Below are positions 4,455 to 47,182 of a stretch of DNA of 64,000 nucleotides, piece by piece. The notes beneath the pieces are model-generated. The model was not told the DNA's origin and ran no database searches. It worked only from the letters and a program-made list of their open reading frames with translations. Positions within the stretch are counted from its first letter, which is position 1; every line of letters begins with the position of its first letter. Made by a program: the position numbers and the translations under genes. The stretch lies in contig CAWABQ010000022.1 in assembly GCA_963780265.1 (NCBI GenBank), forward strand, positions 8,548 through 72,547. Reading direction: 5' to 3'. Source of the stretch: Candidatus Bathyarchaeota archaeon. GTDB taxonomy: Archaea; Thermoproteota; Bathyarchaeia; 40CM-2-53-6.

Positions 4455-4469
4455 GGCGATTATGCGAGC

Positions 4470-7299: not shown

Positions 7300-7407
7300 T
7301 CCAACTCTTCTCGCTAGTATACGGTTCGATTAAGATATTCTTTATAGCAGCACTACGTTACGGTACAAAAACCGCAACACAGGGACAGTCGTTAAGGAAG
7401 TCTGTTC

Positions 7408-7968: not shown

Positions 7969-8052
7969 GAGTCGGATAGACTAGGCCTTGCCAATAAGGC
8001 CTAAAGCGCTCTATTTCGGTTAAGCGAAAATCGAAACACGACGGTTAACAGC

Positions 8053-8286
8053 ATGGCCGATCATTGCCCGCTCTGCGAAAGGCCAAGGCAAGCTCCATCG
8101 GAATTCTGCGCTCTCCACGACGCAGCCCACGCTAACCTCGAAAACGCGTACTTGGCATGGAACAAATCCTACGGCGGTAATTTGACTAAAGAAGAATACT
8201 TTGCTCAACTGGAGAAGAGAGAAGAAACCGGCAGAGCCGTGAAATCTGTTATTCAATACCTTCTCGGGAAAGGAGGCGTTGCCTAA
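8053..8286 (+). CDS. small protein with an N-terminal CxxC...C..H motif
   Basis: 77-aa ORF starting MADHCPLCERP...FCALHD. Its TAA abuts the GTG start of the topoisomerase gene, which suggests co-translation. Confidence 0.45.
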   Translation: MADHCPLCERPRQAPSEFCALHDAAHANLENAYLAWNKSYGGNLTKEEYFAQLEKREETGRAVKSVIQYLLGKGGVA

Positions 8287-10400: not shown

Positions 10401-10404
10401 TTAC

Positions 10405-11595: not shown

Positions 11596-11640
11596 GATGA
11601 AGCTACGCTACGAATCGTTCCGTCACTCGGAAGTCGACTC

Positions 11641-12228: not shown

Positions 12229-12950
12229 ATGTCTATGCCTTTGTAGATCAGCGGGCTCGGTACGTCGGCAACCTACTTGCACATTTCAGCGGGACGTGCG
12301 GGGTTTTCAGAAGAAGTGCAATCGAGGATGCAGGCGGGTGGAGTTCGGACACGCTTGCGGAGGACCTTGACCTATCAATTAGGCTACACCTGAAAGGCTG
12401 GCGATACATTTACGTCCCTACAGTTGTCTGCCCGGGCGAGATTCCACCGAGTTTTGACAATTTGAGGCATCAACAGTTCCGTTGGGCGAAAGGCTTCTCC
12501 GAATGCTTAAGGAAATACGGTGGCGCAATCATTCGCAGCAAGCGCCTGAACTTCTTTCAGAAAATGGAAGCTTTGCTCCATTTGGGGACCTACTTCATCT
12601 GCCCATTAACGATCATCGGCATTGTTGTCGGCTTGTTGTACTACTCGATTTTTCCCCCGTCCTTTTGGTTGATGGGTTTCTGGAGGTACCAGGTCGCTCT
12701 GTTGACGTTCTTTCTCTCACTTGTAATCTATAGCGCGCCGCTAATCGCTTCAGGGGTGACGTTATCGGAGTTTTCGCAAGTCGGAATAACAAAAGCCAGA
12801 CGGTTGCTGCACCTTGGCTACTTGGGCGCACTTGTCTATGGCTTGCTTCTCAGCAATACGAGAGCCGTTATTGAGGGTCTCTTCTCGAGGACGTCGTACT
12901 TCTATCGCACACCCAAACTCGGCTCCATTCCGAGTGCAATAGAAAATTAG
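12159..12950 (+). CDS. family-2 glycosyltransferase, C-terminal fragment (the ORF track lists only 12462-12950)
   Basis: Frame 3 is open from 12159 and reads AQSRWSYLDGQF...GTCGVFRRSAIEDAGGW...AEDLDLSIRL...HQQFRWAKG (ED and QxxRW motifs). Four TM helices follow. Confidence 0.8.
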   Translation, partial: AQSRWSYLDGQFSWIAKAISLAIDVYAFVDQRARYVGNLLAHFSGTCGVFRRSAIEDAGGWSSDTLAEDLDLSIRLHLKGWRYIYVPTVVCPGEIPPSFDNLRHQQFRWAKGFSECLRKYGGAIIRSKRLNFFQKMEALLHLGTYFICPLTIIGIVVGLLYYSIFPPSFWLMGFWRYQVALLTFFLSLVIYSAPLIASGVTLSEFSQVGITKARRLLHLGYLGALVYGLLLSNTRAVIEGLFSRTSYFYRTPKLGSIPSAIEN

Positions 12951-13033
12951 GTTCGGCTAAGCAGCCCGAGTCACAAGCAGCTTTCCTAATCTTCACCGAA
13001 ATTACATGCTGAACCGTTCGCGTTGTAGGTAAT

Positions 13034-13513
13034 CTACTGCTTCTCCGCTGACGGTGCAGCCAGTGGTTTGCGTAACATATCGAGTATTCTATCGTTCTTG
13101 AGGATGTTCCTTCGGTCAATTAACAGCAGTAATGAGAGCGTCAGGAATACGAGGTAGAGAATCATGGATACGTTCAGTAGGGCGTTTGGGATGTTCGGAT
13201 ACCATCCTACAACATTGACCGAGAACACAAGCCCGTAAGCAAAGAGAGCGAACAGCAGCGGAAAGGTGAAGATGCCAAGCCAGTAAGCCCACCGCGACAG
13301 GAAATACAACGCGACGGCGGTGATTATTGATAGGCCACCGAGAACCAGTAGATGGTACGCCGTCCTGTCGAATAAGCCCCAGAAAGCAAGCATGTACACT
13401 CCGCCAACCGCGTAGAACACGAAAGGCACCCAGATGCCTGCCGTCCGCTCAGCGAATTCTTCTGTCAATCTCCGCGCCACCAAGTTTTGGGAGGCCTTAT
13501 TACGCCTGAACAT
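13034..13513 (-). CDS. membrane protein, function unknown (start moved to the internal ATG)
   Basis: The track ORF runs to 13663 and overlaps the agmatinase start. The ATG at 13513 (MFRRNKASQ...) precedes 4-5 TM helices and removes the overlap. Confidence 0.5.
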   Translation of the reverse strand: MFRRNKASQNLVARRLTEEFAERTAGIWVPFVFYAVGGVYMLAFWGLFDRTAYHLLVLGGLSIITAVALYFLSRWAYWLGIFTFPLLFALFAYGLVFSVNVVGWYPNIPNALLNVSMILYLVFLTLSLLLLIDRRNILKNDRILDMLRKPLAAPSAEKQ

Positions 13514-13539
13514 GTGCCATAAAGCTTTGCCAGTCTGAA

Positions 13540-14445
13540 GTGGTGCGGAATTTGTTGGAGAATCTGACTTTTCACACCTCAAAGATCGACAATTTCTCAG
13601 GTTTCTCAAAACCATTAGACGAGGCGCGTTACGTAGTACTAGGCGTCCCTTACGATCACACAAGTACTTTCAGGGCAGGGTCCCGTTTTGCGCCAAGAGC
13701 GATTCGCGACGCATCCTTGAACATCGAAACGTACAGCCTTCGAACAGGCATCGATATCGAACACGTTCCAATACACGACGCAGGCGACCTGCACGTAGTC
13801 GATAACGTTTCTGAAACGGTCGACCGGCTCAGTAAGGTTACAAAGGACATTCTGTCCGTGGAGAAAATGCCAGTTTTCATCGGGGGAGAACACACGATTA
13901 CTCAGGGCCCAGTTCGTAGCATGCCGCACTCTGTTGGAGTAGTGAGTTTCGACGCACACGGAGACCTGAGAGATGAATACGGCGGAGGGAAATTATCCCA
14001 CGCGACAGTCCTAAGGCGTATTACCGAGATTGTTGGAACAGACGCCGTTCTAGTCTGCGGCATACGAGCCCTCTGCAAGGAAGAAGTGGATTTCATTCAA
14101 GAACAAAAAATCCAGAAAATGACACCATGGGAAATCAGGGAACTAGGCTTAGCCAAGGCGACGGAACGCGTAAAGGCCTTTACCCATAAGTTCCAACACA
14201 CATACCTAACCATCGACACCGACGTTTTGGACCCAGCCTTCGCACCCGGGGTCGCAAACCCCGAATTCGACGGCTTAACGCCCGAAGAACTCCTCACGCT
14301 AACCGCAGCAGTAGCTGACGAAAGGATGATCGGTTTCGACTTAGTGGAGGTTTGTCCAAACTATGATACCGGTGCCACTGCCGTGGCCGCCGCCCGGCTG
14401 ATATTCGAAGTTATCGCCAGGGCTGAGAAATCAAGAAAGCACTAA
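13540..14445 (+). CDS. speB: agmatinase (ureohydrolase family)
   Basis: The metal-ligand motifs GGEHTIT, SFDAHGDL and LTIDTDVLDPAFAPGV are those of the arginase/agmatinase family. Confidence 0.85.
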   Translation: MVRNLLENLTFHTSKIDNFSGFSKPLDEARYVVLGVPYDHTSTFRAGSRFAPRAIRDASLNIETYSLRTGIDIEHVPIHDAGDLHVVDNVSETVDRLSKVTKDILSVEKMPVFIGGEHTITQGPVRSMPHSVGVVSFDAHGDLRDEYGGGKLSHATVLRRITEIVGTDAVLVCGIRALCKEEVDFIQEQKIQKMTPWEIRELGLAKATERVKAFTHKFQHTYLTIDTDVLDPAFAPGVANPEFDGLTPEELLTLTAAVADERMIGFDLVEVCPNYDTGATAVAAARLIFEVIARAEKSRKH

Positions 14446-14789
14446 CCGGTTCTTTGCATCTTCGCAATGAAGTACCCATTACATTCGTGTATGTGTGGGT
14501 AGAATCTCTGGCACAGGTCAAACCCCCTCAGCCCATGTGAACCCAAGAATGGGGCTTGCGGCACAACTCTGAACTCGGGACTATTTCTCAGAAAGTCCTC
14601 GATTACAAATTCGTTTTCTTCCGGCAAAATGCTGCAGGTGCAATAGACGAGTGTCCCGTTCGGCTTCACATAGTTGGACGCGGCTTGAAGTATCGCGTAT
14701 TGTCTCAACGCGAACTCATTTACGGCTGGGCGGGGGTTAACTTCCATTTCCCGGCGGGGCTTCTGGCAAATACTCCGCTGTTTGAGCAT
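14442..14789 (-). CDS. RNA cytosine-C5 methyltransferase (NOL1/NOP2/Sun, RsmB-like), C-terminal fragment
   Basis: LRQYAILQAASNYVKPNGTLVYCTCSILPEENE (motif VI, TCS). The break from the central fragment lies at the G-runs 14728-14736. Confidence 0.8.
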   Translation of the reverse strand: MLKQRSICQKPRREMEVNPRPAVNEFALRQYAILQAASNYVKPNGTLVYCTCSILPEENEFVIEDFLRNSPEFRVVPQAPFLGSHGLRGFDLCQRFYPHIHECNGYFIAKMQRTG

Positions 14790-15550
14790 GGTGGGTCAAC
14801 AAGGACGATGTCTGCCTCGATCTTGAATGGGAGCCTTCTCGCGTCAGTGCGGATAGGCATCGCAATCTCGCAGCCGCACCGGACCATTTCTCTCTTCCAA
14901 TATGAAAGCCTGGGGCCGGAAATGTCGACCGAATAGATTTGACCTCTATTCTGCATTTGGTCAGCTAGGTGAGTTGTCTTGTTTCCAGGTGCGGCGCAAA
15001 TGTCGACGACAATGTGTCCAGGCTTCGGTGCCGCAACGAACCCTGCCGTAATACTTGCCAGATCCTGTACTACTAGGGCCCCAGACTTAATGAGCCGGGA
15101 CGGCTGGCCCTTCATACCCAGGCAGAAGACGCCATCGACTCCCTCCACTCTCAAGCCGCCTAACTCTGCAGCAATTTCCACCGATTGACTAGCAACCTTC
15201 AGCGAGTTCAAGCGAACGTAAGCAGGCATCGTCTGCAAATTTCGGCGCAGGATTTGGAGGGCGAAGCTTCTTCCGAACACGTTCACGAGCCGTTCGACGA
15301 ACCAAACCGGATGGCAGGTTTCGAGAGAAAGTCTTTCGAATTCAGGTAACGTATGGTAAGGAATTATTCCTCCTGCAACGATTAAGCCAATTTGTTTCTC
15401 ATACGTGCGGAGCTCCTTCCAACCCAAAATTTGCCTAGCCAGCTCTACCTGGCGTTCTAGATCGTTTTGGCGAGTCCCGTCAACATACTTGAGGTATGCG
15501 ATAATTCTCAAGAAGCTCCTTATGCCATGCGGAGCCCGCTCGATTCTCAT
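14720..15550 (-). CDS. RNA cytosine-C5 methyltransferase, central catalytic fragment
   Basis: SAM motif VVDICAAPGNKTTHLA and motif IV IVLVDPPCSNSG. Confidence 0.85.
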   Translation of the reverse strand: MRIERAPHGIRSFLRIIAYLKYVDGTRQNDLERQVELARQILGWKELRTYEKQIGLIVAGGIIPYHTLPEFERLSLETCHPVWFVERLVNVFGRSFALQILRRNLQTMPAYVRLNSLKVASQSVEIAAELGGLRVEGVDGVFCLGMKGQPSRLIKSGALVVQDLASITAGFVAAPKPGHIVVDICAAPGNKTTHLADQMQNRGQIYSVDISGPRLSYWKREMVRCGCEIAMPIRTDARRLPFKIEADIVLVDPPCSNSGVFARSPAGKWKLTPAQP

Positions 15551-15764
15551 CTTGGGAGACTACTTGCGAAATCAAGTAGTCAAGTTGGTTTTGGAATCGC
15601 GTTGTTTCCATGATGAGCCGGTACGCTTGGCGAAGCTCATTAGCTTCCTTGACCCCTATCTGGTCAGCGGCCTTGAATAGAGTAGTTCTCTCGCCGAGGC
15701 CTGCGTAGGCCATCCAGCTGAGAGCTTCAATTGCCACCGCGAGTGAATCCTTCATCAGGTCCAC
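15480..15764 (-). CDS. RNA cytosine-C5 methyltransferase, N-terminal NusB-like fragment
   Basis: A 94-aa helical segment whose frame overlaps the central fragment. The likely join is at the run 15554-15556, giving ...ISQVVSKMRIERAPHG... Confidence 0.55.
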   Translation of the reverse strand: MDLMKDSLAVAIEALSWMAYAGLGERTTLFKAADQIGVKEANELRQAYRLIMETTRFQNQLDYLISQVVSQDENRAGSAWHKELLENYRIPQVC

Positions 15765-16016
15765 GCCAGCTCCGTGGACGCTATCTTGGTTGCCTAATTA
15801 TTTAGTGCGAGTGTTATCCAGAGTTCGTGGCTGAAAATTTTGCTAGGGCTCACGGGGGATTCATCAACAACCCCGATGCAACCCACGCGATGGCGTCTTT
15901 CAAGAAAGTGTTCGACTAGCCGTGGTCCACAGGATGTGAAGGAAAGGAGAGGCAGCGATTTCGATGGAAACAAGACGCGAGACGAGGGTGGAAATTTGTG
16001 ACGGAAAATGTGACAG

Positions 16017-16024
16017 TATATAAA
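16017..16024 (-). promoter_or_regulatory. TATA-box-like element (TTTATATA on the minus strand)
   Basis: An exact match to the archaeal TATA consensus, read on the minus strand within a 620-bp region lacking a convincing CDS. It lies about 250 nt upstream of the 15764 start, so its target is unclear. Confidence 0.3.
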
Positions 16025-16217
16025 GGGAACGGCCTTGGCCAGTTTCAGGCCTAGACCCTGGCCCACTACCCAGCAGAAATATGCTTTCAAAACGAGTTTT
16101 TCGGGGGATTTACCGGTCGTGATTAGTGATAATGAACCTAACGAAAATGGGGTATCGCTCACGGTTGATGGGTTGTGGTGGAAACTTTCGATTGATACGG
16201 GCATTAAGGCAAACGAA

Positions 16218-16291
16218 CTTCCTCTTTCTCTTCCCCCTCTCTTCCCATTCCCCCTTCCGCCTCTCCCTTCCTTTCTCTTCCTACCTCTTTC
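16218..16291 (+). repeat. 74-nt polypyrimidine (CT-rich) tract
   Basis: 71 of 74 bases on the plus strand are C or T; the purines are at 16247, 16259 and 16283 only. It sits in the divergent intergenic region upstream of polB. Confidence 0.9.
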
Positions 16292-16382
16292 AAAATGCGT
16301 TCCACTCGTACGAGTTTGTCGCTGTAACATTCTCCGTAATCTAGTGAATAGGAATCTTTGACTTCAACCAAACTTAGCGAAA

Positions 16383-17087
16383 TTGATAGAACAAAGTCGA
16401 AAGGGCCAACAGAGGCGCAATAATTGCGCGAAGTTGCAATACTATTTAGTAGGAACCCTAAGCACCCTAGGCGGTTTTCGGGAGGACTGGCAGACGGCGA
16501 AGACACTTGAAAGCTACTTCACGGAAAAGCCCGTTGAGGTGAAGCTGGCACCGAGGCCAGCTCTCAACCGGCAGAGCTTGGTTTTTTCCCCTGTAACTCC
16601 GGGGACAATTCCACCATCGTACCTAGTCTCCATAGGATATGACGGGGGCCTCAAGAAGTGTTTCCTGCGCCTTTACGAACCAAAGTCTCATAAGATCTAT
16701 TTCTGGTTCGATGATTCCGGGCACAAGCCCTACTGTTACAGCAAGCAGTCAGTCAGCGAACTTCAGAAAGTCGATGCAGTAGCAAGGAACTTGGGCTTCG
16801 ACCACTTCGAAGAGGAAACGAAATTTGACGCACTTAGAAGTCAACAGGTAAGGGTGACGAAGATCGTTGCCAAAGATCCACTTACAATCGGTGGAAAACC
16901 TACTGGGTCAATGCGTGACGCGATAACTGCTTGGGAAGCGGACATAAAGTACGTTGAGAACTACATCTACGACCGCGGCCTTGAACCTGGGATGATGTAC
17001 GAGTTCAAAGACAAACAGCTCTCGGCCGTCAAGTACGAATTGCCCGAACAGGCGACGATGGAAATTGATAGCCTGTTTCGCGAATGA
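16383..17087 (+). CDS. polB: family B DNA polymerase, N-terminal fragment (frameshifted; start codon uncertain)
   Basis: YLVSIGYDGGLKKCFLRLYEP...HKPYCYS is typical of the PolB N-domain. Removing one T from the run 17076-17078 gives ...EIDSLFANESPEYK.... Confidence 0.85.
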   Translation: MIEQSRKGQQRRNNCAKLQYYLVGTLSTLGGFREDWQTAKTLESYFTEKPVEVKLAPRPALNRQSLVFSPVTPGTIPPSYLVSIGYDGGLKKCFLRLYEPKSHKIYFWFDDSGHKPYCYSKQSVSELQKVDAVARNLGFDHFEEETKFDALRSQQVRVTKIVAKDPLTIGGKPTGSMRDAITAWEADIKYVENYIYDRGLEPGMMYEFKDKQLSAVKYELPEQATMEIDSLFRE

Positions 17088-19104
17088 GTCTCCAGAGTAC
17101 AAGGGGCTAGCAAAAGAATGGATGAGGCTGCTTGAGTGCCCCGTCCCAGAATACAGGAGGGTTGCCGTCGACATCGAGGTCTTTCAGGCTGTAGAGTCAC
17201 GTATCCCTGACCCAGAATTATCGGAATACCCGGTAATCTGCGCAAGCCTTGTGGGCTCCGACGGAGCCCGCAGAGTTCTCCTCTTGCGGCGAGAGGGGAC
17301 GCCTGAGGGTCAAGCCTCGTTGCCAACTGGCGTCGAATTGGAATTCTATGAGAAAGAGGAAGAACTGTTGGTGGCACTGTTTCAGGCACTCTTGGAGTAT
17401 CCGATAGTGGCCACATTCAACGGGGACGATTTTGACTTAAAGTACCTCTACCACCGCGCCCAAAGGTTGGGTTTCAGAAATGAAGAGGTACCAATTGAGT
17501 TGGGCCGTGACGTTGCATTTCTCAAGTATGGCGTCCACATAGATCTCTACAAGTTCTTCTTCAATCGATCAATACAGATCTACGCGTTCGGCCAGAAATA
17601 CCGCGAGAACACTTTGGATGCTGTCGGCGAAGCGCTGATTGGTACTCAAAAGGTTGAGATAGAATCAGTATCGAAAGCATCCTACAAGCAACTGGCCGCG
17701 TACTGTTACCGTGACTCAGAAATCGTCCTCAGCCTAACCTCATTCAACGACGACTTGGTCATGAAGTTGATGACTGCAATTTCGCGAATCAGTTACATGA
17801 CTTTGGATGACGTCTCTAGGCAGGGGGTCTCTGGTTGGATTAGAAGTATTATGTTCTGTCATCACCGCAAACGAGGATACTTGATACCCAGAAAGGACGA
17901 GATTCTCGAGGTCAAAGGCCAAACTGTCACAGAAGCAGTCATCAAAGGCAAGAAGTACAAGGGTGCGCTCGTTGTCGAACCTAAGCCAGGTGTGCATTTC
18001 AACGTCGCCGTCCTCGACTTCGCCTCCCTGTACCCTTCGATCATCAAGGTTTGGAACCTCGGTTATGAGACAGTTCGTTGCCCGCATGAGGACGAGGCAT
18101 GCAAAAGAAACCTGATTCCAGGAACGCCCCACTGGGTCTGCAAGAAAAAACGCGGACTTGAGAGTCTCCTGATCGGGTCACTTAGGGACCTTCGAGTGAA
18201 CAGGTACAAGATCATGTCGAAGGACCGTTCCCTACCAAGGAATGTGCAGAGTTGGTACAAAGTTGTGTCCGATGCGACGAAAGTGATCTTGAACGCAAGC
18301 TACGGTGTCATGGGAGCCGATAATTTTGCATTGTATTGTCCGCCTGTCGCTGAGGCTACCGCCGCGATAGGCAGACATGTGATCACTCAAGCTTTGCAGA
18401 AGGCGCAGGAACTAAACTTGGAGGTTTTCTACGGCGACACGGATTCCATATTCCTCCAAGGCGAGGACGCGGTTTCGCTTAACAAGCTCATTGAATGGTC
18501 GAGCGGCCAGCTAAGAATGGAGTTGGAAATCGATAAGAACTATCGCTACTTGGCCCTGAGTTCAAGAAAGAAGAACTATTTCGGGGTCCTGCCTGACGGA
18601 AGCGTAGACATCAAGGGTTTGACAGGGAAGAAGCGGCATATACCCGAGTTCTTGCATGGCGCCTTCTACGAAATGGTTTCAACTCTCAGCGAAGTCAAAT
18701 CGCGGGAAGACATTGACACTGCGAAAGCGAAAATCACTGAAATTGTGAAGAAATGCTACGGGAAATTGCGAAACAGGGAATACACGCTCCATGAACTAGC
18801 CTTCTCAATGATGATGAGCAGAACCCCGGAGCATTACACGAAAACGACCCCGCAGCATGTGAAAGCGGCTAGGCAATTACAGCAGGCAGGCTCCGAAATG
18901 AAACCCGGCGACATCATATCTTTCGTGAAAGTCCGAGGTGAGCCTGGAGTCAAACCAGTACAACTTGCAAGGCTCGACGAGGTTGACACGGAGAAATACA
19001 TTGAATATATTCGGGGAACTTTCGAGCAGGTACTCGACGCCCTAGGGGTTGAATTCGATGACTTGGCCGGCGTAAAGAAACTCGAATCATTCTTCAGCGG
19101 GTAA
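17065..19104 (+). CDS. polB: family B DNA polymerase, exonuclease and polymerase domains
   Basis: Exo I is VAVDIEV, Exo II is FNGDDFDLKYL, Exo III is YCYRDSEIV. Pol A is LDFASLYPSII, Pol B is KVILNASYG, Pol C is YGDTDSIF. Confidence 0.95.
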   Translation: MIACFANESPEYKGLAKEWMRLLECPVPEYRRVAVDIEVFQAVESRIPDPELSEYPVICASLVGSDGARRVLLLRREGTPEGQASLPTGVELEFYEKEEELLVALFQALLEYPIVATFNGDDFDLKYLYHRAQRLGFRNEEVPIELGRDVAFLKYGVHIDLYKFFFNRSIQIYAFGQKYRENTLDAVGEALIGTQKVEIESVSKASYKQLAAYCYRDSEIVLSLTSFNDDLVMKLMTAISRISYMTLDDVSRQGVSGWIRSIMFCHHRKRGYLIPRKDEILEVKGQTVTEAVIKGKKYKGALVVEPKPGVHFNVAVLDFASLYPSIIKVWNLGYETVRCPHEDEACKRNLIPGTPHWVCKKKRGLESLLIGSLRDLRVNRYKIMSKDRSLPRNVQSWYKVVSDATKVILNASYGVMGADNFALYCPPVAEATAAIGRHVITQALQKAQELNLEVFYGDTDSIFLQGEDAVSLNKLIEWSSGQLRMELEIDKNYRYLALSSRKKNYFGVLPDGSVDIKGLTGKKRHIPEFLHGAFYEMVSTLSEVKSREDIDTAKAKITEIVKKCYGKLRNREYTLHELAFSMMMSRTPEHYTKTTPQHVKAARQLQQAGSEMKPGDIISFVKVRGEPGVKPVQLARLDEVDTEKYIEYIRGTFEQVLDALGVEFDDLAGVKKLESFFSG

Positions 19105-32304: not shown

Positions 32305-32964
32305 TTGAGCGATATCGAACCAACTACCCAACAGTTGACGAACGCACTGCTCGCTGGAAGAGCTGAAGAGGTCCGACAGAGCACTAATGCAGCGTTAGCT
32401 GGAGGTAGCACCCCCAACGAAATACTGGATGCGTTGGTTGACGCGGTGAACATCGTCGTTGACCTGCATGAAGTTGGAGAATACGATCAGGGCAGAGTGG
32501 ACGCTGTGGAGAATGCGGTCGGCTCGTGTCTTCAGGTTATTGAAGACCGACTTGCAGTGGCTGAGGGGAAGTTCAACATCAAGGCGACCACAGGCCCAAT
32601 TGGCCTCAAAGCTGGAAACTTGCTCTCAATGGCGGTATCTGCATCGCTCAGGTCCGCAGGGTTTCGGTCCGTAAACTTGGGCAAGAGCCAGACACCATTG
32701 GAACTTCTTCGAAACTCGGAAGAGCTCGGAGCGGATTTAGTTGTCCCGTTACTATCGAGTGAAGAAGTTGAAAAACAACTACAGACCTTCACCGAGGCTG
32801 TTGAACGCGGAGGGTTCAAAACGAAATTCGGGGTCATCCCAGTCGCACCTGGCCTACCAGAAACCATTCAGACTTCCTTTATGATCGCGAGAAACTCCAG
32901 CGAGGCAATCAGCAAAGCAACTGAATGGGCGTTGAAACGCCAAAGTCAGAACAGGGCTAAATGA
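32305..32964 (+). CDS. corrinoid-protein-like (B12-binding-domain-like) protein lacking the DxHxxG motif
   Basis: The N-terminal helical cap is LTNALLAGRAEEVRQSTNAALAGGSTPNEILDALVDAV. A Rossmann-like half follows with TTGPIGLKAG at the place where DxHxxG is expected. Confidence 0.45.
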   Translation: MSDIEPTTQQLTNALLAGRAEEVRQSTNAALAGGSTPNEILDALVDAVNIVVDLHEVGEYDQGRVDAVENAVGSCLQVIEDRLAVAEGKFNIKATTGPIGLKAGNLLSMAVSASLRSAGFRSVNLGKSQTPLELLRNSEELGADLVVPLLSSEEVEKQLQTFTEAVERGGFKTKFGVIPVAPGLPETIQTSFMIARNSSEAISKATEWALKRQSQNRAK

Positions 32965-32985: not shown

Positions 32986-33519
32986 TCAGGTTTTCCAGAA
33001 TCCGTCGAAGGTTGAGAATGCAAGGTCACCGATCTCCGGAATGAAATGGTCTGTCACGATTATCAGAAACGCCACTGCGAACACGCCAAGAATGAGGCCT
33101 GTGGGGTAGTGGGCGAGGGACCACGGTAAGATCCCGTTGTAGAGCAGCCATATCTCCAAGGCTATCCGGCCAATGTTCGCGACGTAGACGGTTACGGCAA
33201 CAATCCCAAGAGCAGTGAGTCTTTTCTTGATGGCAACTTTAGGCATGGCAACAATAATTCCCAAGAAGACCGCAATCACTTGAACACCAGTACACATTCG
33301 CTGGATTTCGAATTGATTCAAGAAGACTTGATTGCCCTGGTACCAAACGGTTGCCTTAATTCCAATTAACTCCATCAGGATAGCTGAATGTTCCGCAATG
33401 AGTTTTTCGAAGAAGAAATAGTTCGGTAAGTAGTATAACACGAGTGCGATAACGGATGTTATTCCGAGAACCCGTCCGATTTCGAAAATCTTCTGCCGCT
33501 GGAAGTGCTCCGATCCCAT
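32986..33519 (-). CDS. exosortase/archaeosortase-family protein (short form) with a Cys/Arg/His triad
   Basis: 177 aa with about 5 TM helices. Motifs are EIQRMC(76)TGVQV, VANIGR(118)IALE and LAH(137)YPTG. It is adjacent to a PEF-CTERM gene. Confidence 0.7.
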   Translation of the reverse strand: MGSEHFQRQKIFEIGRVLGITSVIALVLYYLPNYFFFEKLIAEHSAILMELIGIKATVWYQGNQVFLNQFEIQRMCTGVQVIAVFLGIIVAMPKVAIKKRLTALGIVAVTVYVANIGRIALEIWLLYNGILPWSLAHYPTGLILGVFAVAFLIIVTDHFIPEIGDLAFSTFDGFWKT

Positions 33520-33710: not shown

Positions 33711-34178
33711 TTACCTTTTTCGTTTCCTGTGCTTCATTACCGTTAGGGCTGCTGTGATCGCTACGATCGCAATGGTCGATGCCATTCCCGTGGGAAATTC
33801 AGGTACTGGTACGTGGGATTGTTCAAGGGTGAAATTGCTTGGAGTCGATGAACCGTCCGAGACGGCAACAGTGTTACTGTAAGCCGTGTACCCTGGTTCT
33901 ATAACAGTGACGTTGTAAGTGCCTGTGGGTACGTACATTTCATAATAGCCGCTTGAGCCCGTATATGCCACGAATTTGTATTGGCCGTTGGTCGCGGTTA
34001 CAGTGGCCCATTCGATGGGTTGAAGTTGGTCGTACATATCGAATCCTAGCACCTGGCCCCTAATCAGTCCGCCTCCGTAACTCGGATTTGGTTGAGACTG
34101 CGCGATTGCTACTCTTGCTCCGAGCAGGGCCAGTGCGATCATTCCCGCCGCCATAAGGACGTAACACACGAGCTTCAT
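33711..34178 (-). CDS. secreted CarboxypepD_reg-like beta-sandwich protein with a PEF-CTERM sorting signal
   Basis: Signal peptide MKLVCYVLMAAGMIALALLGARVAIA. Then GYYEMYVPTGTYNVTVIEPGYTAY. The C-terminus is VPVPEFPTGMASTIAIVAITAALTVMKHRKRKR. Confidence 0.75.
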   Translation of the reverse strand: MKLVCYVLMAAGMIALALLGARVAIAQSQPNPSYGGGLIRGQVLGFDMYDQLQPIEWATVTATNGQYKFVAYTGSSGYYEMYVPTGTYNVTVIEPGYTAYSNTVAVSDGSSTPSNFTLEQSHVPVPEFPTGMASTIAIVAITAALTVMKHRKRKR

Positions 34179-39803: not shown

Positions 39804-41984
39804 TTATGCAGCTAATCTACGGTTCTTAGATTTGGTAAGGAACACGATGCCCCGCATTTCCTCGACCTGGAAACGTATCCAATTGTCGATGTAGGGTTTA
39901 TCCCGCAGCTTCTTGATCCTCAACCGCCTTCTTTGGCCCACCCCCGACTCCTGCAGCTGAGTCTCTATCACACAATCGGAAAATTCCTCGAGCTTTGTCA
40001 TATCCTCGCTCTCGATGCCCGTGCCGACGGTTACGCAGAATTTTCCGTTATTTGCCTTAACCTTAGCTGCCACTGATTGAAGGAAATTAATCAAGTAATC
40101 AATACGCAATGCGGTGATTAGCGGGTTTAACGAGTCAAGATAGACGTCTGCTTTGGGACCTGCGATCTCAAGGCACTTTGTGATGTTCAAACCCAAGTTC
40201 GTCAAGTCTGTGTGTGAACCAACTGAAAATTCCTCTTTTGACGAGCCTCCTCCAACCGCGGAATAAGCATCGATGAAAATGACTCTGCCGTTTTTCAAAT
40301 CGGCTTCGGTACAAACTCCGAGCTTGATGAGGCTTTCGCGGATTTTGTCCGGGTATTCGGTGTTGGTGATGTATACTGATTTGCCTAAAGCCAAGTGCTC
40401 TCCTGCCAAAGAGTTCAACAAAACAGATTTGCCCGAGCCGGAGTTGCCTGCTATGGTTGTGAAACATGCTTCGGGTAAACCACCATGGGTCAGCTCCGTG
40501 AAGTACTTGAAGCCCGTCGGATAGAGCTTGCCCCTCCTCCTCCGAATTAGCACGACCGACGCGACGGATATTATGGCCAGCGTGGCGATGACAGTGATTG
40601 TCCGATGTGGGAACGGAACCCTAACAATTGCTCCACCGTTTGCTATCACATTCAATGGCGACTGATATGTAGCGAAAAAGTAGTCTGCGCGAACGGTATA
40701 GTTGCCCCCCGGGATTTTCTGGAAGTTAGCAACGCCATCTATCCCAGTAAGGACATCCTGAACCACGGATTTCTGGGACAGCGTGACGTGAGCCGCAGGG
40801 ACTGGTAGCGCGAGCAGCGGTGTGTCCATAACTATCCGGACTGAGATATCGTAGAGTGCCAGTCGAAGTACAAACATTGAAGCGCAGTCGATAGAGGGAA
40901 GAGGTAGAAACGTTTGTGTCCCAAGCCAGGAGATTGTCAGATTCATCGGACCGACTATCTGGCTTGAAGGTAGTGACAAGATGCCAACACCAGACGCGTT
41001 TGTGGCAGTGCTCCAAACTGCTTCGCCTCCAAACTTTACAGTTAAAGTAGCGTTCGGGAGAGACGTATTATCTGAAGTTACAACTTTAATTGAAACGGGG
41101 AAGAAATTGCTTACCCAGAAATGGTCGGTAAAGGAATAACTATCACCTGAGAGGTCGCGCAGCAGCAAGACTAGCTGCCATTGTCCCTGACTAAACCTCG
41201 AAGCAACCGAAGCCAGGCCTGAGTAGTCAGTGTTGTTCTTGAGGTTGATTGGAAAATTAATGTTCGTCCCGTTGGGAGCTGTCAGCTGAAAGGAAACGTA
41301 TGCGAAACGGTAAGCGCCAACTGAATCATTGACCGCCGCGCCGATTTTGACCGCCGCGCTGCCCCCAGCATCTGCTTGAAAGATTCTGCCGAAACTATGT
41401 TCTCCTTGCAAGCTCAGGTCGGCTGTTGTGGGCGATAGAGTTGGAAGCCTGAGACCTGTCGGAGCCGCCGGGTCGTCCCACACAAGCAGCGGCGTTCCTG
41501 AGCCTGATGTTTGAAGAACCCCGATGTGAAGTACTATTGCCGAGCCTGTTCGGAATTGGTAGTCGATAATTCCAACTCCAACGGTCACTGGCAAAATCGT
41601 TGTTCCCAACCTGATCGGGCCTGTGTCCACGATTGCAGAGGGGACCGCGATTTCTGTTCCTCCCTTAGGGAGTTCAGCTAGCCGTAAGCCAACCGTTCCG
41701 AAGAAGGCGTTGCTAGCCCGCAGGTATACTGTGAATGTTATGGCCCCGTAGATCCGCAGATTGTCACCAAGCACCGGGGTGAGCCTGAAAGTGATTCCTT
41801 TACTAACGTCGGCAGTTTTCTGGCCCGTCGGTTGTGGGAGGGCGTTAAGAATCGTTTGGTCCCCGTAAGAATGAGCGTACAGCGTAATGTTATGGGACGT
41901 AGGCGTAGGCTGGGCTTGCGCCCCGGCAGCCATCAACATTGGTAGAAGAATGATTGAGATGAGAAGTAGGCATGAGGAGCGCAT
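39804..41984 (-). CDS. single-pass transmembrane protein: large ectodomain plus cytoplasmic KaiC/RecA-like ATPase domain
   Basis: Signal peptide MRSSCLLLISIILLPMLMAAGAQA. The ~440-aa beta-rich ectodomain includes CarboxypepD_reg-like segments. The TM helix TVIATLAIISVASVVLI is followed by RRRRGK. Walker A is AGNSGSGKS and the Walker B-like motif is RVIFIDAYS. The ORF is intact. Confidence 0.7.
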   Translation of the reverse strand: MRSSCLLLISIILLPMLMAAGAQAQPTPTSHNITLYAHSYGDQTILNALPQPTGQKTADVSKGITFRLTPVLGDNLRIYGAITFTVYLRASNAFFGTVGLRLAELPKGGTEIAVPSAIVDTGPIRLGTTILPVTVGVGIIDYQFRTGSAIVLHIGVLQTSGSGTPLLVWDDPAAPTGLRLPTLSPTTADLSLQGEHSFGRIFQADAGGSAAVKIGAAVNDSVGAYRFAYVSFQLTAPNGTNINFPINLKNNTDYSGLASVASRFSQGQWQLVLLLRDLSGDSYSFTDHFWVSNFFPVSIKVVTSDNTSLPNATLTVKFGGEAVWSTATNASGVGILSLPSSQIVGPMNLTISWLGTQTFLPLPSIDCASMFVLRLALYDISVRIVMDTPLLALPVPAAHVTLSQKSVVQDVLTGIDGVANFQKIPGGNYTVRADYFFATYQSPLNVIANGGAIVRVPFPHRTITVIATLAIISVASVVLIRRRRGKLYPTGFKYFTELTHGGLPEACFTTIAGNSGSGKSVLLNSLAGEHLALGKSVYITNTEYPDKIRESLIKLGVCTEADLKNGRVIFIDAYSAVGGGSSKEEFSVGSHTDLTNLGLNITKCLEIAGPKADVYLDSLNPLITALRIDYLINFLQSVAAKVKANNGKFCVTVGTGIESEDMTKLEEFSDCVIETQLQESGVGQRRRLRIKKLRDKPYIDNWIRFQVEEMRGIVFLTKSKNRRLAA

Positions 41985-42228
41985 TACGGTGGCCCCTTCG
42001 TGGTACCCACCCGTCCCAAATTAGGATTACCGTTGTTTGAGTCGGTTTCCTACTATTGAATGCTCAATTGGAAATGCGACCTTATCTCGCAGCGGCTACG
42101 TCGCCGGGAACAATATTCGCGAAAACAGCGTTCACATCACGCTCTACCCTGAATCCGCAGGAATGGCACTTCGGCTTTTCGCGGCATGACAAGATTGGAA
42201 GTATTGATTCAGCGTTCGAATCGATCTA

Positions 42229-42810
42229 CTATACTCGCTTCAGTTCTCGCATACGTTTCAGATTGGTTACAACGGCGCTGGGAATTTCACTGGGACTGTA
42301 CATGCTCAAGTGGTATTCCTCCAAATTCGGCCTTACAACACAAACGTAGAGGTTCATGCCGAGAAATTGCAAAAACGCCGAAACCGCAGCGTGATTTCGT
42401 ATCTGCCGAGAAGGCGAAGTCGTAATTTGGATCGCGCATGGCTTTCCACCTTTGTAAGCCAAAGCATCAAATACCCAGAAACTTGCCACGTCACCCTGCT
42501 CTCGCGACCTCAGCCCTTGCGGCCAGAGGATCTTCCTAAATCCTTCCTTTGGTAAGATCTTCTCTAAGGCTACCTTCTTTGCTGCGAAGATCCTTTCATG
42601 GTCGATAGTTGGGCTGGGTTTTCCCTCAAACCAACCTGAGTAGAGTGTGGATATGTACTTCTTCGCTCTGAGCCGTTCTTTTTCACTGTTTGCACGGTAG
42701 CGTTTTCTTTTGACTTGTTTCTGGCGGTCGCGGTACTCCTTATGGGTCCGCCAGTAGTTTCGATGGTAGCTTCGGAAGTATTGCTTGTATTTTTGGTAGG
42801 GTGTTGACAT
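42229..42810 (-). CDS. basic hypothetical protein (possible degenerate PD-(D/E)XK-like C-domain)
   Basis: The N-terminus is Lys/Arg/Tyr-rich. The C-half LEKILPKEGF...FDALAYKGGKPCAIQITT resembles an Hjc-like nuclease layout but lacks the ExK lysine. Confidence 0.45.
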   Translation of the reverse strand: MSTPYQKYKQYFRSYHRNYWRTHKEYRDRQKQVKRKRYRANSEKERLRAKKYISTLYSGWFEGKPSPTIDHERIFAAKKVALEKILPKEGFRKILWPQGLRSREQGDVASFWVFDALAYKGGKPCAIQITTSPSRQIRNHAAVSAFLQFLGMNLYVCVVRPNLEEYHLSMYSPSEIPSAVVTNLKRMRELKRV

Positions 42811-42872
42811 TGTTGATTGCGTTAATGCGAATTGCTTATTGCTACTTAAATATCGTTCCCCAAGTCGTCCCC

Positions 42873-42946
42873 TTATATATGGTTTGATGGGCCTATCGTC
42901 GCTTGGTATACGTCAAGCAAGTTGACGTAACCGAAAAATTAAGGGA
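42873..42946 (+). promoter_or_regulatory. promoter/leader of the 4.2-kb surface-protein gene: TATA-like box, perfect palindrome, SD-like GGGAG
   Basis: TTATATAT lies at 42873-42880. TACGTCAA-gcaag-TTGACGTA lies at 42909-42929. GGGAG lies at 42943-42947, about 12 nt before the TTG start at 42959. Confidence 0.4.
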
Positions 42947-42958
42947 GAAAAAGAAAAT

Positions 42959-43378
42959 TTGCATAAGAAATTTGCTGCAGGGCTAACAATAGCCATATTT
43001 CTAATTAGCACTCTAGCGATTGTGAGTCAACTGACTCCAGTTAGCGCCCACTTCACATTGGGCGACTATACCTCAACTTCCCCATACCATGCCTGCGACT
43101 TTGACGGGGGACGCCACCAAATGTGTTCAAGCTTCAACAAACAAGTTCACGTGCCAGGCGTAATCGGTTATGTGTGGCCAGGATCTGGCTCAGCCGATTA
43201 CATGGGCCAAGGCCCAGCGCTCGGATTCTCATATGGGAATAACGCAGCGCCAGGCTACATGCCTCCGAACCCCGCGGCGGACCTCGCAGGGACGGGAGCG
43301 CCCCAAAACTGGCTTCAGCTTGACCTGATGCGTACGCTCCATTCGGAGCAGTCCTCACCGGCTCAACCGGTGACTTGA
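42959..43378 (+). CDS. giant PEF-CTERM surface (S-layer candidate) protein, fragment 1 of 6
   Basis: Signal peptide MHKKFAAGLTIAIFLISTLAIVSQLTPVSA. The frame breaks near 43322-43326, and frame 1 continues PDAYAPFGAVLTGSTGDLIF. Confidence 0.7.
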   Translation: MHKKFAAGLTIAIFLISTLAIVSQLTPVSAHFTLGDYTSTSPYHACDFDGGRHQMCSSFNKQVHVPGVIGYVWPGSGSADYMGQGPALGFSYGNNAAPGYMPPNPAADLAGTGAPQNWLQLDLMRTLHSEQSSPAQPVT

Positions 43379-43644
43379 TTTTCGCAGTGAACGCAACCAA
43401 GCTGGCTCATGAGGCGCACTTCACGAGACTCTACATAGCCATCCCACCCGAATTCACCCTACCCGGCGGTGTCGATAACATCGTCACCACCATAACCAAC
43501 AAGTACGGCAACATCATCAATTACGGACACATCAGCCCGTACGACAGATGGGCACCAGGGTGGACCCTTCTGCGAATCGGTGCTGACAACATACCAGACA
43601 GAGCTGTCAGGGTGACTAGTAAGCAAGCCGCAACCCAGGCCTAG
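43375..43644 (+). CDS. giant surface protein, fragment 2 of 6
   Basis: Coding in this frame actually runs from 43324: ...FAVNATKLAHEAHFTRLYIAIPPEFTLPGG.... Confidence 0.65.
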   Translation: MIFAVNATKLAHEAHFTRLYIAIPPEFTLPGGVDNIVTTITNKYGNIINYGHISPYDRWAPGWTLLRIGADNIPDRAVRVTSKQAATQA

Positions 43645-43738
43645 GATCTGGAATCAACTTCAAGAGCACAGGCTTGCAGATACAGTAGGACCGAACGGCG
43701 TTTCAACGACGGGCGGTATCTGCGACCCATGGTACTAC

Positions 43739-44536
43739 GTGAGGATTAACGGTGTCACTGCACCCACAGTTGCTGGAAAATACTTCTTCAAACTATCATT
43801 CCGACACGACGGAGCGGTCGGCGGTGCTACTGGCGCCAGTGCAACCGACTCGTACTTTGTCCCAGTTGAGAACTGGCCAGTCATGCTCGTTAAGGGTGAG
43901 ATTGACCCAGCAATCATTACTGGCAACATAAAGTACGGCGGATACAATGCTTCACTCTACGGATTACCCGTAGAAGAGGCAGGCCAAGTTTGGGCTCACA
44001 TGACGACCAAGCTTGACCCGTACACGGGCAACAAGCTCATCGACTGCTCAACCGGAACACTCATGGCCCCGACTGCAGGATGCACTGATGCCGTTGGATA
44101 CTTCAACGCAACAGCCCACGGCCACTACGAGGTGGAGGGTGTAGCGCCAGGTACCTACGACATCTACGCTGAAGCGGCAGGATACCCACAGTTAGTCATC
44201 GCATCAGGCGTGACTGTTCTGAAGGGCCAATCGCTGCACTTCGACGGATACCTACAACCCGGAGCAGTGATTCACGGCGACATCAACTCCAAGCACCAAT
44301 TCGGAGTTGAGCCATGGCCATACACAGAATACATTAAGGTTGAACTCTACGACCAACCAACCAACAACCACGCACCGCAAGACTCCTCAGGCAACGCACT
44401 CGTACCAGTATACTTGGTCCCCGCTTCCATGTGTTGCGGGTGGTCAAGACAGTGTACCGAGGCGGAACTGATGCGCAAGGTTGCGGTGACCCGCGAACCG
44501 CCAGCCAAATTGCCTTCCCATGGCATGAATGGCTGA
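43739..44536 (+). CDS. giant surface protein, fragment 3 of 6
   Basis: The frame is open from 43616. It contains a CarboxypepD_reg-like unit GHYEVEGVAPGTYDIYAEAAGYPQLV. Confidence 0.65.
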   Translation: MRINGVTAPTVAGKYFFKLSFRHDGAVGGATGASATDSYFVPVENWPVMLVKGEIDPAIITGNIKYGGYNASLYGLPVEEAGQVWAHMTTKLDPYTGNKLIDCSTGTLMAPTAGCTDAVGYFNATAHGHYEVEGVAPGTYDIYAEAAGYPQLVIASGVTVLKGQSLHFDGYLQPGAVIHGDINSKHQFGVEPWPYTEYIKVELYDQPTNNHAPQDSSGNALVPVYLVPASMCCGWSRQCTEAELMRKVAVTREPPAKLPSHGMNG

Positions 44537-45105
44537 CGCAAGACGGGTTCCCAGGAGCAGGCAACGGCTTCAGCTACGACTTCTCACTCTCCGGAGTTCC
44601 AAAGTTCGGTCCAGCACCAGCGGCTAACCCAGGTGCTGGGAGCAACATCAACATGTTGACAACTGACCCAGCAGGAGTTGGGCCAGCACAGAACTGGTTC
44701 GTTGTCGCAGGCTCAACCGCACCATTCCACTTCGAATTCGGCCTCAAGGGTGAATTCGGAGCACCAAGAGACATGAGCGGGGAGGTCCCGCAACTGTTCG
44801 CGACATGGATCAACGGGCTAACGCCCGGAAGATACTATGTGCGAGCATGGACCTTCAGGTATGTCCAATCTGCGCTTGACGGTGCAACATTCCAAGAATA
44901 CCCATTCGACGTCACACCCCAAGAATGGGCGGGTGACGTTACGCTACCAATCGACATCCGCTTGAGCAGCTGGGTGAACAAGACTGTTCACTTCCACGAC
45001 CTGCCAGGCACCATCAACACCGACCCCCTCAGCACGGGAGTTCAAAACTCCTACGACCCCTACATGGTTGGAGGACTCTACGGCGGCCCTATACGGGGAC
45101 TCTAG
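44431..45105 (+). CDS. giant surface protein, fragment 4 of 6
   Basis: ...IAFPWHEWLTQDGFPGAGNGFSYDF...RYYVRAWTFRYVQSALDGATFQEYPFDV.... It ends at an in-frame TAG at 45103-45105. Confidence 0.65.
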   Translation: MLRVVKTVYRGGTDAQGCGDPRTASQIAFPWHEWLTQDGFPGAGNGFSYDFSLSGVPKFGPAPAANPGAGSNINMLTTDPAGVGPAQNWFVVAGSTAPFHFEFGLKGEFGAPRDMSGEVPQLFATWINGLTPGRYYVRAWTFRYVQSALDGATFQEYPFDVTPQEWAGDVTLPIDIRLSSWVNKTVHFHDLPGTINTDPLSTGVQNSYDPYMVGGLYGGPIRGL

Positions 45106-45249
45106 GATCAACGCAGCCTAGCTTCATGGAACGTCACCAACATCAGCAACGGCGAAGGCAGCCAAGCAATCACTTTCTTCGGCTTCAACGACACATGGAT
45201 CGGCGATAATTACGGTATCCCAGCCGGCACATACACACCTTAGGTGTAG

Positions 45250-45498
45250 GTGCAAGGATACTTACAGCAAACCTTCGAACAAGTTTCCGTAACTCTCAGC
45301 GGTAACCCAACATTCATCAGCGACCACATGTATCGAGGCGTAGGCCTCAACATCACGGCCTACAGCGTCGACTGGGAGAGGCCCAGAGTCAACAGGAACT
45401 GGGTCTGGGATGGCGCTGAAATCGACTTCGCAGTACTGAACGCAACGGCACCCAAGTCAACAACATATGCTACGAATGCAATGCTGGCAACGGAGTAA
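45250..45498 (+). CDS. giant surface protein, fragment 5 of 6
   Basis: Same frame as fragment 4, separated from it only by TAG codons at 45103, 45241 and 45247. The stretch between them (SWNVTNISNGEGSQAITFFGFNDTWIGDNYGIPAGTYT) is clearly coding. Confidence 0.6.
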   Translation: MQGYLQQTFEQVSVTLSGNPTFISDHMYRGVGLNITAYSVDWERPRVNRNWVWDGAEIDFAVLNATAPKSTTYATNAMLATE

Positions 45499-45643
45499 CC
45501 GGTGGACTAGCAACTACAGTTCCACCTTATCCAGCGGATACCCAAAGCTTTGAGATCAGCGGCACACCAGGCGTCATATCATATGTGGTGGCGCCGGTAT
45601 CTGTACTACACCTGCTGTCGACCAAGAAGCCAATACATACTTC

Positions 45644-47182
45644 ATGGAAGTTCCAGGCTTGGGCGTAGGTAACGCCAACGGAGCCTGGTTCGGCATCGAA
45701 ACCATCGGTGAGGCCAATGCGGGCCACGCTGATGTCGGTGGATACACAGGTTACGCTTCAGGACCCCCAGGTGCAACTGGAGCAGACCCGCACGTACAGT
45801 CACCACTGGTTGGAGGCTTCGGCTTTACAACCGCGGTGATCAACAACTGGCACCACGTAAGCTACTTCAAACCAACCGCACTAGACTCCGGCCAATACTG
45901 CATTGCAGGATGGACCTACGGCTACGTACAGGACAAGCAATTCTGCGTCTACGCTAACAAAGGTGAAATTGCAGACATCAAAGTGAACTTCCTGATCGGC
46001 GTGAACATAACGTTGGATATACTCTTCAAGAAAGAGCATATCATAACGCCAACGGCGTTCAACATGTCTGCAAGAGTCCGAGTCTTCGATGACTCAGGCG
46101 TCCTTGTTGGTGAATGGATGACCAGCGAAGGCACATACGTTACAGGCAATGGCCAGGCGACGTCAGCCACATGTGGCGACGACATCTTTGGACATACAGG
46201 TCCAGGATCCGGATGCCTATACCCATGGGACGGAGGACTAGAGGGCGCTACCCCGATCGGCTTCAACTACCTACCGGGCGGCGTTACCAACCTCCACGTA
46301 CTCATCGCAGGCTTAGCACCAGACGCGACGGACACCACCACGGGAACGTGGGGTGACCCCGTCTTCGCGAACTCGGCTATCAACTGCGACTTCGAAGTCG
46401 ATTGCACAGGCCCAGGATTAGGCTACCCGTCACCCTGGTTTGTCAACAATGGCATATCGGGTGCACCGGACTATACGGGAAGCTGGACTGTTGAAACCGA
46501 CTTCGTCAATTGGTACGCTAACAACACAAGCTTCACAACGGAACCGGCAGGAGTTGTGATAAACCACAGCGTTCCACAATACTACCCACCAGTGGTCGGC
46601 TTACTGCAAGGTGAGTCATACCACATAATACCCGGCACCACAGCCACGACAGGCGTAAGCTTGACAGAGGACGGTGCCGAAAACAGCGCATTCCTTGGAC
46701 TGGCCGCACCAGGCATGGAGCGTAACCATCTTGGTCCGTACCAGCAACAAGGAGTCTGGCAACTATCCAACGCTCACCTAAGCGGTGAAGTCAGCGGAGT
46801 ATTCGAACTTGACCTCGCAGGCTACGTGTCAGGCTCAGCGTGGGCCTTCACATGGAGCAACGAGTTCAGGCCACTCAGCTGGGCAACCGTAACCATCGCT
46901 AGCGCAGACGGCAAATGGACCTTCACACAATACACCCAAGACGGAATCTACGAAGGGTACCTACCGCCTGGATCGTACACTATGACGATCTCGGCGCCAG
47001 GAATTACTTCGCAGACCCAGAGCTTCGTCGTAACAGCAGGCCAATCCTCAGGTGTAGGAACCGGCCAACAACTCTACATGGAACAGAGCAACATTCCAGT
47101 CCCAGAATTCAGCGGAATCGCAATCATGGCATTCTCAGCCCTAGCAGCATCACTATACCTACTACGACGCAGACGCCGCTAG
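45644..47182 (+). CDS. giant surface protein, fragment 6 of 6, with PEF-CTERM
   Basis: CarboxypepD_reg-like unit DGIYEGYLPPGSYTMTISAPGITSQTQSFVV. The C-terminus is SNIPVPEFSGIAIMAFSALAASLYLLRRRRR (PEF at 47102-47110). Confidence 0.75.
   Translation: MEVPGLGVGNANGAWFGIETIGEANAGHADVGGYTGYASGPPGATGADPHVQSPLVGGFGFTTAVINNWHHVSYFKPTALDSGQYCIAGWTYGYVQDKQFCVYANKGEIADIKVNFLIGVNITLDILFKKEHIITPTAFNMSARVRVFDDSGVLVGEWMTSEGTYVTGNGQATSATCGDDIFGHTGPGSGCLYPWDGGLEGATPIGFNYLPGGVTNLHVLIAGLAPDATDTTTGTWGDPVFANSAINCDFEVDCTGPGLGYPSPWFVNNGISGAPDYTGSWTVETDFVNWYANNTSFTTEPAGVVINHSVPQYYPPVVGLLQGESYHIIPGTTATTGVSLTEDGAENSAFLGLAAPGMERNHLGPYQQQGVWQLSNAHLSGEVSGVFELDLAGYVSGSAWAFTWSNEFRPLSWATVTIASADGKWTFTQYTQDGIYEGYLPPGSYTMTISAPGITSQTQSFVVTAGQSSGVGTGQQLYMEQSNIPVPEFSGIAIMAFSALAASLYLLRRRRR

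Follow-up and report, generated by a model that had tools for sequence, protein, structure and literature searches.

Is the large surface-protein gene at positions 42959-47182 (+) of this archaeal sequence broken in the organism that carries it, or only in the sequence that was assembled from it? The gene lies in a window of 64,000 nucleotides, the whole stretch of DNA analysed here, which corresponds to C22:8548-72547 of a Candidatus Bathyarchaeota draft genome (2.08 Mb in 48 contigs, estimated completeness 75%). Stop-to-stop frames revealed that no single frame reads the gene from start to end; at least nine frame switches are required and three TAG codons are met in frame. An earlier note on this DNA had listed the disruptions and had left three explanations side by side: strain heterogeneity collapsed into a consensus, a real decaying pseudogene, or locally poor read quality. 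The results presented here indicate that the disruptions are very probably an assembly artefact, produced by collapsed strain heterogeneity over a genome-wide background of small insertions and deletions (indels). As expected for an artefact, the breaks were absent from independent data, the same errors were present elsewhere in the assembly, and the broken sites were found to mix two haplotypes. The assignment rests on the sequence pattern together with independent public data.

The reading path of the gene was defined by frameshift-aware protein-to-DNA alignment with four intact relatives (G021, P0001, P0002 and P0006). The same nine frame switches were required in the alignment of the gene with each of the four, at positions ~43326, 43601-43631, 43675, 44411, 44451-44454, 45086-45091, 45108-45114, 45443 and 45581-45598. 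The repaired path crosses the in-frame TAG codons at 45241 and 45247 and shows 93% amino acid identity to P0002. The sites of disruption listed in the earlier note were accurate according to both the stop-to-stop frames and the frameshift-aware alignment, and a compensated -1/-1/-1 group at 43107-43126 can be added to them. Combining protein and nucleotide alignments, the gene contains 12-13 indel events that are not a multiple of three nucleotides (non-3n indels) and two nonsense codons. All these events are confined to the segment 43107-45581; the final 1.5 kb, which is ~99.5% identical to peat contigs, is free of them.

Intact forms of the gene are found in related genomes. A six-frame search across 40 of them identified orthologues that are syntenic and free of interruptions in two sister species, with lengths of 1405 amino acids (aa) in G021 and 1382 aa in G018; the TTG start and signal peptide of the G021 orthologue are identical to those of the window gene. 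When the G021 protein was used as query of a homologue database, 624 homologues were retrieved at E<=1e-10. The best 120 of the 624 range from 810 to 1596 aa, nearly all being full length and most measuring 1200-1560 aa, and those among them that are named are annotated as 'carboxypeptidase-like regulatory domain-containing protein [Candidatus Bathyarchaeia archaeon]'. The intact homologue P0002 (1403 aa) is recorded in NCBI, Logan and ENA. The layout of the intact protein comprises a signal-peptide-like N-terminus, two CarboxypepD_reg-type sandwiches and a PEF-type C-terminal sorting signal; no Pfam domain was detected in long regions of it. By homology and layout, the gene represents at this locus a widespread Bathyarchaeia family of predicted secreted and C-terminally anchored proteins of ~1200-1560 aa. 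Two paralogues are present in the same genome (G000): the one at C48:9621-13826 carries 7 frameshifts with respect to intact relatives, and the one at C35:15059-18081 is frame-broken and is devoid of both protein ends.

The state of the gene in independent samples was assessed in the Logan contigs of eight public runs, four from peat (X1, X4, X8 and X9) and four from freshwater sediment (X19, X20, X30 and X31). The eight runs carry the unbroken form at every disrupted site that they cover, and none of them carries the disruptions of the gene at those sites. With respect to the window, the runs insert bases at 43107, 43109, 43126, 43324, 45089, 45112, 45443 and 45581, and omit bases at 43600-43616, 44410/44412 and 44451/44453. 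In the first group, a C is inserted after each of 43107, 43109 and 43126 in all four sediment runs; at 44410-44412, run X9 (286x) omits 44412 and four runs omit 44410. The peat allele rebuilt over 45040-45660 by applying all the listed differences forms one open frame that matches P0002.

Comparison with the two kinds of intact relatives suggests how the broken form may have arisen. Over the gene, the window sequence superimposes two intact alleles, of the G021 type in the 5' part and of the dominant peat (P0002) type in the 3' part. Along the repaired path, the protein encoded by 42959-44458 is 85-100% identical to G021 (96-100% outside variable patches) and 73-95% identical to P0002, and that encoded by 44909-47182 is 67-98% identical to G021 and 96-100% identical to P0002. 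At the nucleotide level, identity to G021 (measured against L011, G021:C14) is 65-80% at 41300-42649 and 95-99% at 42650-42949; it is maintained at 95-100% over 42650-44458, reaching 100% over 43709-44158, and falls again beyond. As the identity to G021 jumps at 42650 and subsequently falls, and as the upstream flank (40030-42895) is ~97.6% identical to peat contigs, the contig switches haplotype twice. Both allele types were found together in at least one peat run, at ~260x and ~9x.

Several of the broken sites carry the letters of both alleles (Table 1). Deleting positions 44412 and 44453 from the window restores the exact P0002 protein, and deleting 44410 and 44451 restores the exact G021 protein; each of these +1 insertions is thus the union of the letters of the two alleles. 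At 43596-43632, the 26-nt 'insertion' relative to G021 corresponds to a peat-type variable patch (..DRAVSGDYVSKSANPGLG..) minus one base within G021-type sequence. P0002 reads RIGADNIPDRAVSGDYVSKSANPGLG in this patch, frame 1 of the window reads ADNIPDRAVRVTSKQAATQA*, and the event at 43675 was resolved into two +1 insertions by nucleotide alignments. At 45089-45112, G021-like ATACGGGGAC is mixed with peat-like ..GGATCAAC.. in the window, and the loss of one base on its 5' side and of two on its 3' side puts the short segment containing the TAG at 45103 out of frame. The TAG codons had been attributed to paired compensating indels. This holds for the TAG at 45103, flanked by the events at 45089 and 45112, but not for the pair at 45241 and 45247, which resulted from substitutions that generate hybrid codons. 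The alternative-frame reading TYTPLGVGQGYLQQ proposed for this pair is not real, the intact alleles reading TYTPYVYVQGYLQQ or TYTPKVWVQGYLQQ. Per-site depths agree with a hybrid: 45243 and 45249 are G>C at 260/269, and 45241 T>A and 45248 A>G occur in the minor and sediment allele. Over 45195-45276, the positions that distinguish the two alleles are interleaved in the window in the order G,P,P,P,G,P,G,G,G,P,G (G, G021-type; P, peat-type). Strain heterogeneity collapsed into a consensus, one of the explanations in the earlier note, is therefore upheld by the superposition of two intact alleles, the hybrid codons and the 'union' insertions.

To what extent is the gene exceptional in its assembly? 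The background was estimated by comparing three flanks, totalling 55.7 kb, with public Logan contigs of peat metagenomes that are 98.7-99% identical to them. The flanks contain 26 listed non-3n indels on which four runs agree, and up to 34 with 8 further rows, giving a rate of 0.47/kb, or 0.61/kb if all 8 further rows count. With 2.8-3.1 events/kb, the gene exceeds the flanks 4.7-6.6-fold (Poisson P 1.7e-5 to 1.8e-7), in good agreement with the 'roughly 5-fold' excess noticed before. The other genes of the window had been considered intact; this was incorrect, as at least 10 of them are interrupted by indels of 1-2 nt when compared with the public peat contigs, including genes for a HerA-like ATPase, a family-2 glycosyltransferase (GT2), an M6-type protease and GT-C-like membrane proteins. 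The split-gene sites are 1089, 3282, 9693, 12158, 14725-14727, 15544, 17083, 23979, 25585, 29011, 37515, 51936 and 53095. The public form extends the open frame at 12-13 of the 14 sites tested (e.g. from 469 to 704, 702 to 913, 329 to 550, 694 to 926 and 464 to 702 aa). Two GT2 fragments match positions 1-117 and 152-230 of one Pfam model, and the M6-type protease is interrupted immediately before its HEFGH motif. On contig C23, a CDC48-like AAA ATPase is interrupted in its P-loop region, inside ..KPPGILLYGPPGCGKT...

A dicodon Viterbi scan for frame switches, with a model trained on this genome, detected 652 same-strand switches in the 2.08 Mb; over positions 1-19000, 7 of 9 switches coincided with indels relative to the public contigs. 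The sensitivity of the scan is low (3 of the ~12 events in the target gene) and its 'strict' filter is noisy, so that these figures serve as supporting evidence and not as a rate. Natural intergenic variation was considered as an origin for flank indels lying at the ends of open reading frames (ORFs) and was rejected, because the Viterbi switches, the Pfam half-domains and the lengthening of frames show that genes are split. From the window flanks and the one C23 gene that were checked, the whole assembly is estimated to carry ~0.47-0.61 small indels/kb. Poor read quality, which the earlier note had envisaged as a local problem, is consequently a partly valid description in a wider sense, at ~0.5 indels/kb assembly-wide. 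Insertions and deletions are both present, and their contexts are short homopolymers only in part. Among the bases that the assembly lacks, G and C predominate, frequently in a CG-rich context (e.g. 3282, 4885, 5660, 9693, 12158, 24205, 45112 and 51936); one may speculate that this bias reflects basecalling errors related to base modification. The completeness of 75% may also be an underestimate caused by marker genes broken by frameshifts.

These observations can be accommodated in the following scheme. Error-prone reads, probably long ones to judge from the error pattern only, would leave ~0.5 small indels/kb throughout the genome. The source sample would have contained two divergent, individually intact alleles, one of the G021 type and one of the peat-dominant P0002 type; the contig would change from one haplotype to the other and the consensus would mix the letters of the alleles column by column. 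Where the alleles differ in length or by adjacent substitutions, the consensus would gain a base (a +1 'union' insertion) or lose one, and codons of mixed origin would become TAG. The more the alleles diverge locally, the more indels per kb would arise, which would account for the ~5-6-fold excess in the gene. In the flanks, ~1 indel is observed per 27 substitution differences, at a divergence of 1.25%; the 5' 2.7 kb of the gene contains 4.8 indels/kb, and peat contigs differ from it by ~8-10% at two stretches checked. We infer that scaling of the indel rate with allelic divergence fits both rates.

Other explanations of the breaks can be weighed against this scheme. One is that the gene has been lost in the strain and is decaying neutrally, together with the paralogues on C48 and C35. 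In its favour, the three copies in the genome are all broken, and surface-protein families with multiple paralogues can tolerate the loss of a copy. However, identity to an intact allele is complete over long stretches next to the indel clusters (43709-44158), so that decay would have had no time to act. Unique substitutions and indels occur in about equal numbers, a ratio that, from established knowledge, differs from natural mutation spectra, and the stops are hybrid codons and the +1 insertions unions of two intact alleles. Essential-looking and housekeeping genes across the genome are broken likewise, and every public population covering the broken sites is intact there. With intact forms in the public runs, hybrid stops and a stretch of full identity, the decaying pseudogene of the earlier note is unsupported, and we consider it very improbable. 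Slightly less improbable, yet still poorly placed, is the view that a naturally recombinant allele, thinly covered by reads, collected generic random errors, the mosaic being real and the indels noise, with no mixing of haplotypes. It agrees with the genome-wide indel background of ~0.5/kb, with the fact that part of the missing bases of the window lie in short runs of G, C or T, and with the established frequency of recombination between related strains in surface-protein genes. It leaves unaccounted for the exact match of the extra letters and stop codons to the letters of the other allele. Nor does it account for the restriction of the breaks to the region in which the two allele types diverge most, whereas the final 1.5 kb, which is more conserved, is spared.

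Almost no credibility can be given here to programmed recoding or to phase variation. Ribosomal frameshifting or pyrrolysine insertion would in that case carry translation across the frameshifts and TAG codons, or the disruptions would form an on/off switch. In favour of this view, the three internal stops are all TAG, a weak corrinoid-protein-like gene is present within the window, and surface proteins are classic phase-variable genes. Read-through of TAG as pyrrolysine was nevertheless rejected, as the TAG positions correspond to Tyr, Lys or Trp codons in the intact alleles and the TAG codons are hybrid; programmed frameshifting and phase variation were rejected since the sites are devoid of slippery or long repeat tracts. 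Indels of the same kind also break unrelated housekeeping genes. We know of no precedent for nine or more such shifts in one gene.

Several points weigh against attributing the whole pattern to the assembly. No public run contains the gene in its assembled form: the best of them contain 0.39-0.40 of its 31-mers, compared to 0.75-0.78 for the flank, and an exact-protein look-up gave no match. Logan contigs show presence rather than absence, and a rare broken variant in those samples is possible. The sequencing technology is deduced from the error pattern alone. Natural variation among strains could account for some of the flank indels, those in spacers, in which case the background would be lower and the excess larger. 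Lastly, the 5'/3' mosaic could partly be a natural recombinant: the promoter and first ~1.5-1.8 kb of the gene would derive from another Bathyarchaeia species, and the assembly would have added the indels as noise. This is rather unlikely in our estimation, although that segment is 98-100% identical to G021, compared to 65-80% in the adjoining DNA. If true, it would imply a cassette-like exchange of segments of surface-layer (S-layer) genes between co-occurring species.

Collapsed heterogeneity over a high indel background has consequences for the use of this genome. A species-representative reference that carries ~0.5 frame-breaking indels/kb calls for caution, and at strain-variable loci a blended consensus mimics pseudogenes. 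Gene calls, pseudogene counts, the completeness estimate (75%) and inferences about the loss of surface proteins that are drawn from this assembly would mislead.

The features of the gene and of its broken sites, and the gene for a putative processing enzyme, are collected in Table 1. The best curated match to the C-terminal tail is TIGR03024 (arch_PEF_CTERM), which is covered over its full length (1-25/25) with a score of 17.2 bits, below the cut-off of 23. The label of PEF-CTERM surface (S-layer) candidate given to the gene before is a reasonable one, albeit with a TIGR03024 score that stays under the threshold.

Table 1. Coordinates of the surface-protein gene, its predicted domains, its broken sites and an associated gene in the window
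Feature	Position	Strand	Details
Promoter/leader segment, switch from peat-type background to G021 allele type	42650..42958	+	Nucleotide identity to G021
Large predicted secreted surface-protein gene	42959..47182	+	TTG start, TAG stop; ~1400 aa when intact; assembly frames 2/1/0/2/0/1/0/2
N-terminal signal-peptide-like segment (predicted)	42959..43048	+	MHKKFAAGLTIAIFLISTLAIVSQLTPVSA; kept in all relatives
Three single missing bases, net -3	43107..43126	+	~7 codons scrambled, no stop; length of patch varies among alleles (nucleotide alignment)
One missing base, frame 2 to 1	43324..43326	+	Allele types differ here, ..LDADAY.. vs ..LDQNAY..; 4 runs insert G after 43324
Peat-type variable patch (..DRAV..SK..) in G021-type surroundings	43596..43680	+	26 nt longer than G021, then two +1 insertions; frames 1 to 0 to 2
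+1 union insertion	44410..44412	+	Window GTATACT; peat GTA TCT (Val-Ser); G021 GTT ACT (Val-Thr)
+1 union insertion	44451..44453	+	Window AGTG; peat AGG (Arg); G021 GTG (Val)
Hybrid patch short of 1 nt and 2 nt at its edges (net -3), giving rise to the in-frame TAG at 45103	45089..45112	+	Peat allele: +A after 45089, +CG after 45112
Two hybrid TAG stops	45241..45249	+	Peat TAC GTG TAC (Y V Y); G021 AAG GTG TGG (K V W); window TAG GTG TAG
One missing base, frame 1 to 0	45443	+	T inserted after 45443 in all covering peat runs
One missing base, frame 0 to 2	45581	+	C inserted after 45581 in X9 and X8
CarboxypepD_reg (Ig-like beta-sandwich) domain, directly before anchor	46868..47056	+	PF13620, 36.7 bits (cut-off 32.3), residues 409-471 of 512-aa C-terminal ORF
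Putative C-terminal sorting signal made up of a PEF motif, a hydrophobic helix and an RRRRR tail	47063..47179	+	Tail ..IPVPEFSGIAIMAFSALAASLYLLRRRRR
Exosortase/archaeosortase-family membrane protein	32986..33519	-	TIGR04178 signature, 40.1 bits (cut-off 23); 9.4 kb upstream of gene

The exosortase/archaeosortase-family protein encoded at 32986..33519 is a candidate for the enzyme that processes the PEF-type tails of the island. Models of archaeosortase subtypes (ArtH, heimosortase and ArtA/D/E) all scored under their cut-offs with this product, so that the gene belongs to the family without a named subtype. Beside it, a 155-aa protein encoded at 33711-34178 (-) matches positions 1306-1416 of the Kustd1514 model (E=1.3e-8, far under the family cut-off) and may be another anchored beta-sandwich cargo. 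Elsewhere in the window, a 726-aa protein (39804-41984, -) has a C-terminal KaiC/ArlH-like ATPase domain detected as a sub-threshold match, and a 219-aa protein (32305-32964, +) has a weak, sub-threshold similarity to the corrinoid proteins of methyltransferases.

Expression of the gene family was visible in a wetland Nanopore metatranscriptome (X32), which contains more than 1400 small contigs of the family. The summed k-mer depth in X32 is ~1e4 over most of 42854-47165, some bins being much lower and 45472-45625 being at zero; it is zero immediately outside 42854-47165. This profile suggests a very highly expressed, monocistronic surface-protein mRNA. The locus draws attention to a family of anchored surface proteins that is widespread, varies strongly among alleles and is apparently transcribed at a very high level. 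An S-layer has been seen by electron microscopy in a cultivated member of the Bathyarchaeia (PMC10477458). Judging from its predicted features, the gene family plausibly encodes the S-layer or a major envelope glycoprotein, and it appears to be the best candidate for the S-layer protein of the Bathyarchaeia. A sequence search of the PDB revealed no similarity between the intact peat allele and solved structures.

Comparisons with known systems can be made for the protein and for the errors. The C-terminal beta-sandwich shows a weak local match to the Kustd1514-family S-layer glycoprotein of anammox bacteria (NF052345; E ~0.007, 13.7 bits), but this score is far under the family cut-off of 1400 bits and indicates a shared type of domain rather than membership. 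PEF-CTERM/archaeosortase systems share with this locus the C-terminal order of PEF motif, hydrophobic helix and Arg-rich tail, a nearby gene of the archaeosortase family, and several further island proteins with tails of this kind. They differ in that the tail of the gene reaches 17.2 bits for a cut-off of 23 and that the enzyme fits no named subtype. The predicted product of the gene also recalls archaeal S-layer glycoproteins anchored through archaeosortase, such as that of Haloferax volcanii (PGF-CTERM and ArtA), in being large and secreted, in combining a signal peptide with a sorting signal at the C-terminus, and in its apparently very high transcription. As for the breaks, they resemble the strain-collapse and haplotype-switch errors of metagenome-assembled genomes built from error-prone reads, in which small indels split genes genome-wide, the density of errors goes up where strains diverge, the consensus contains the letters of both haplotypes, and the changes of haplotype take place at conserved stretches.

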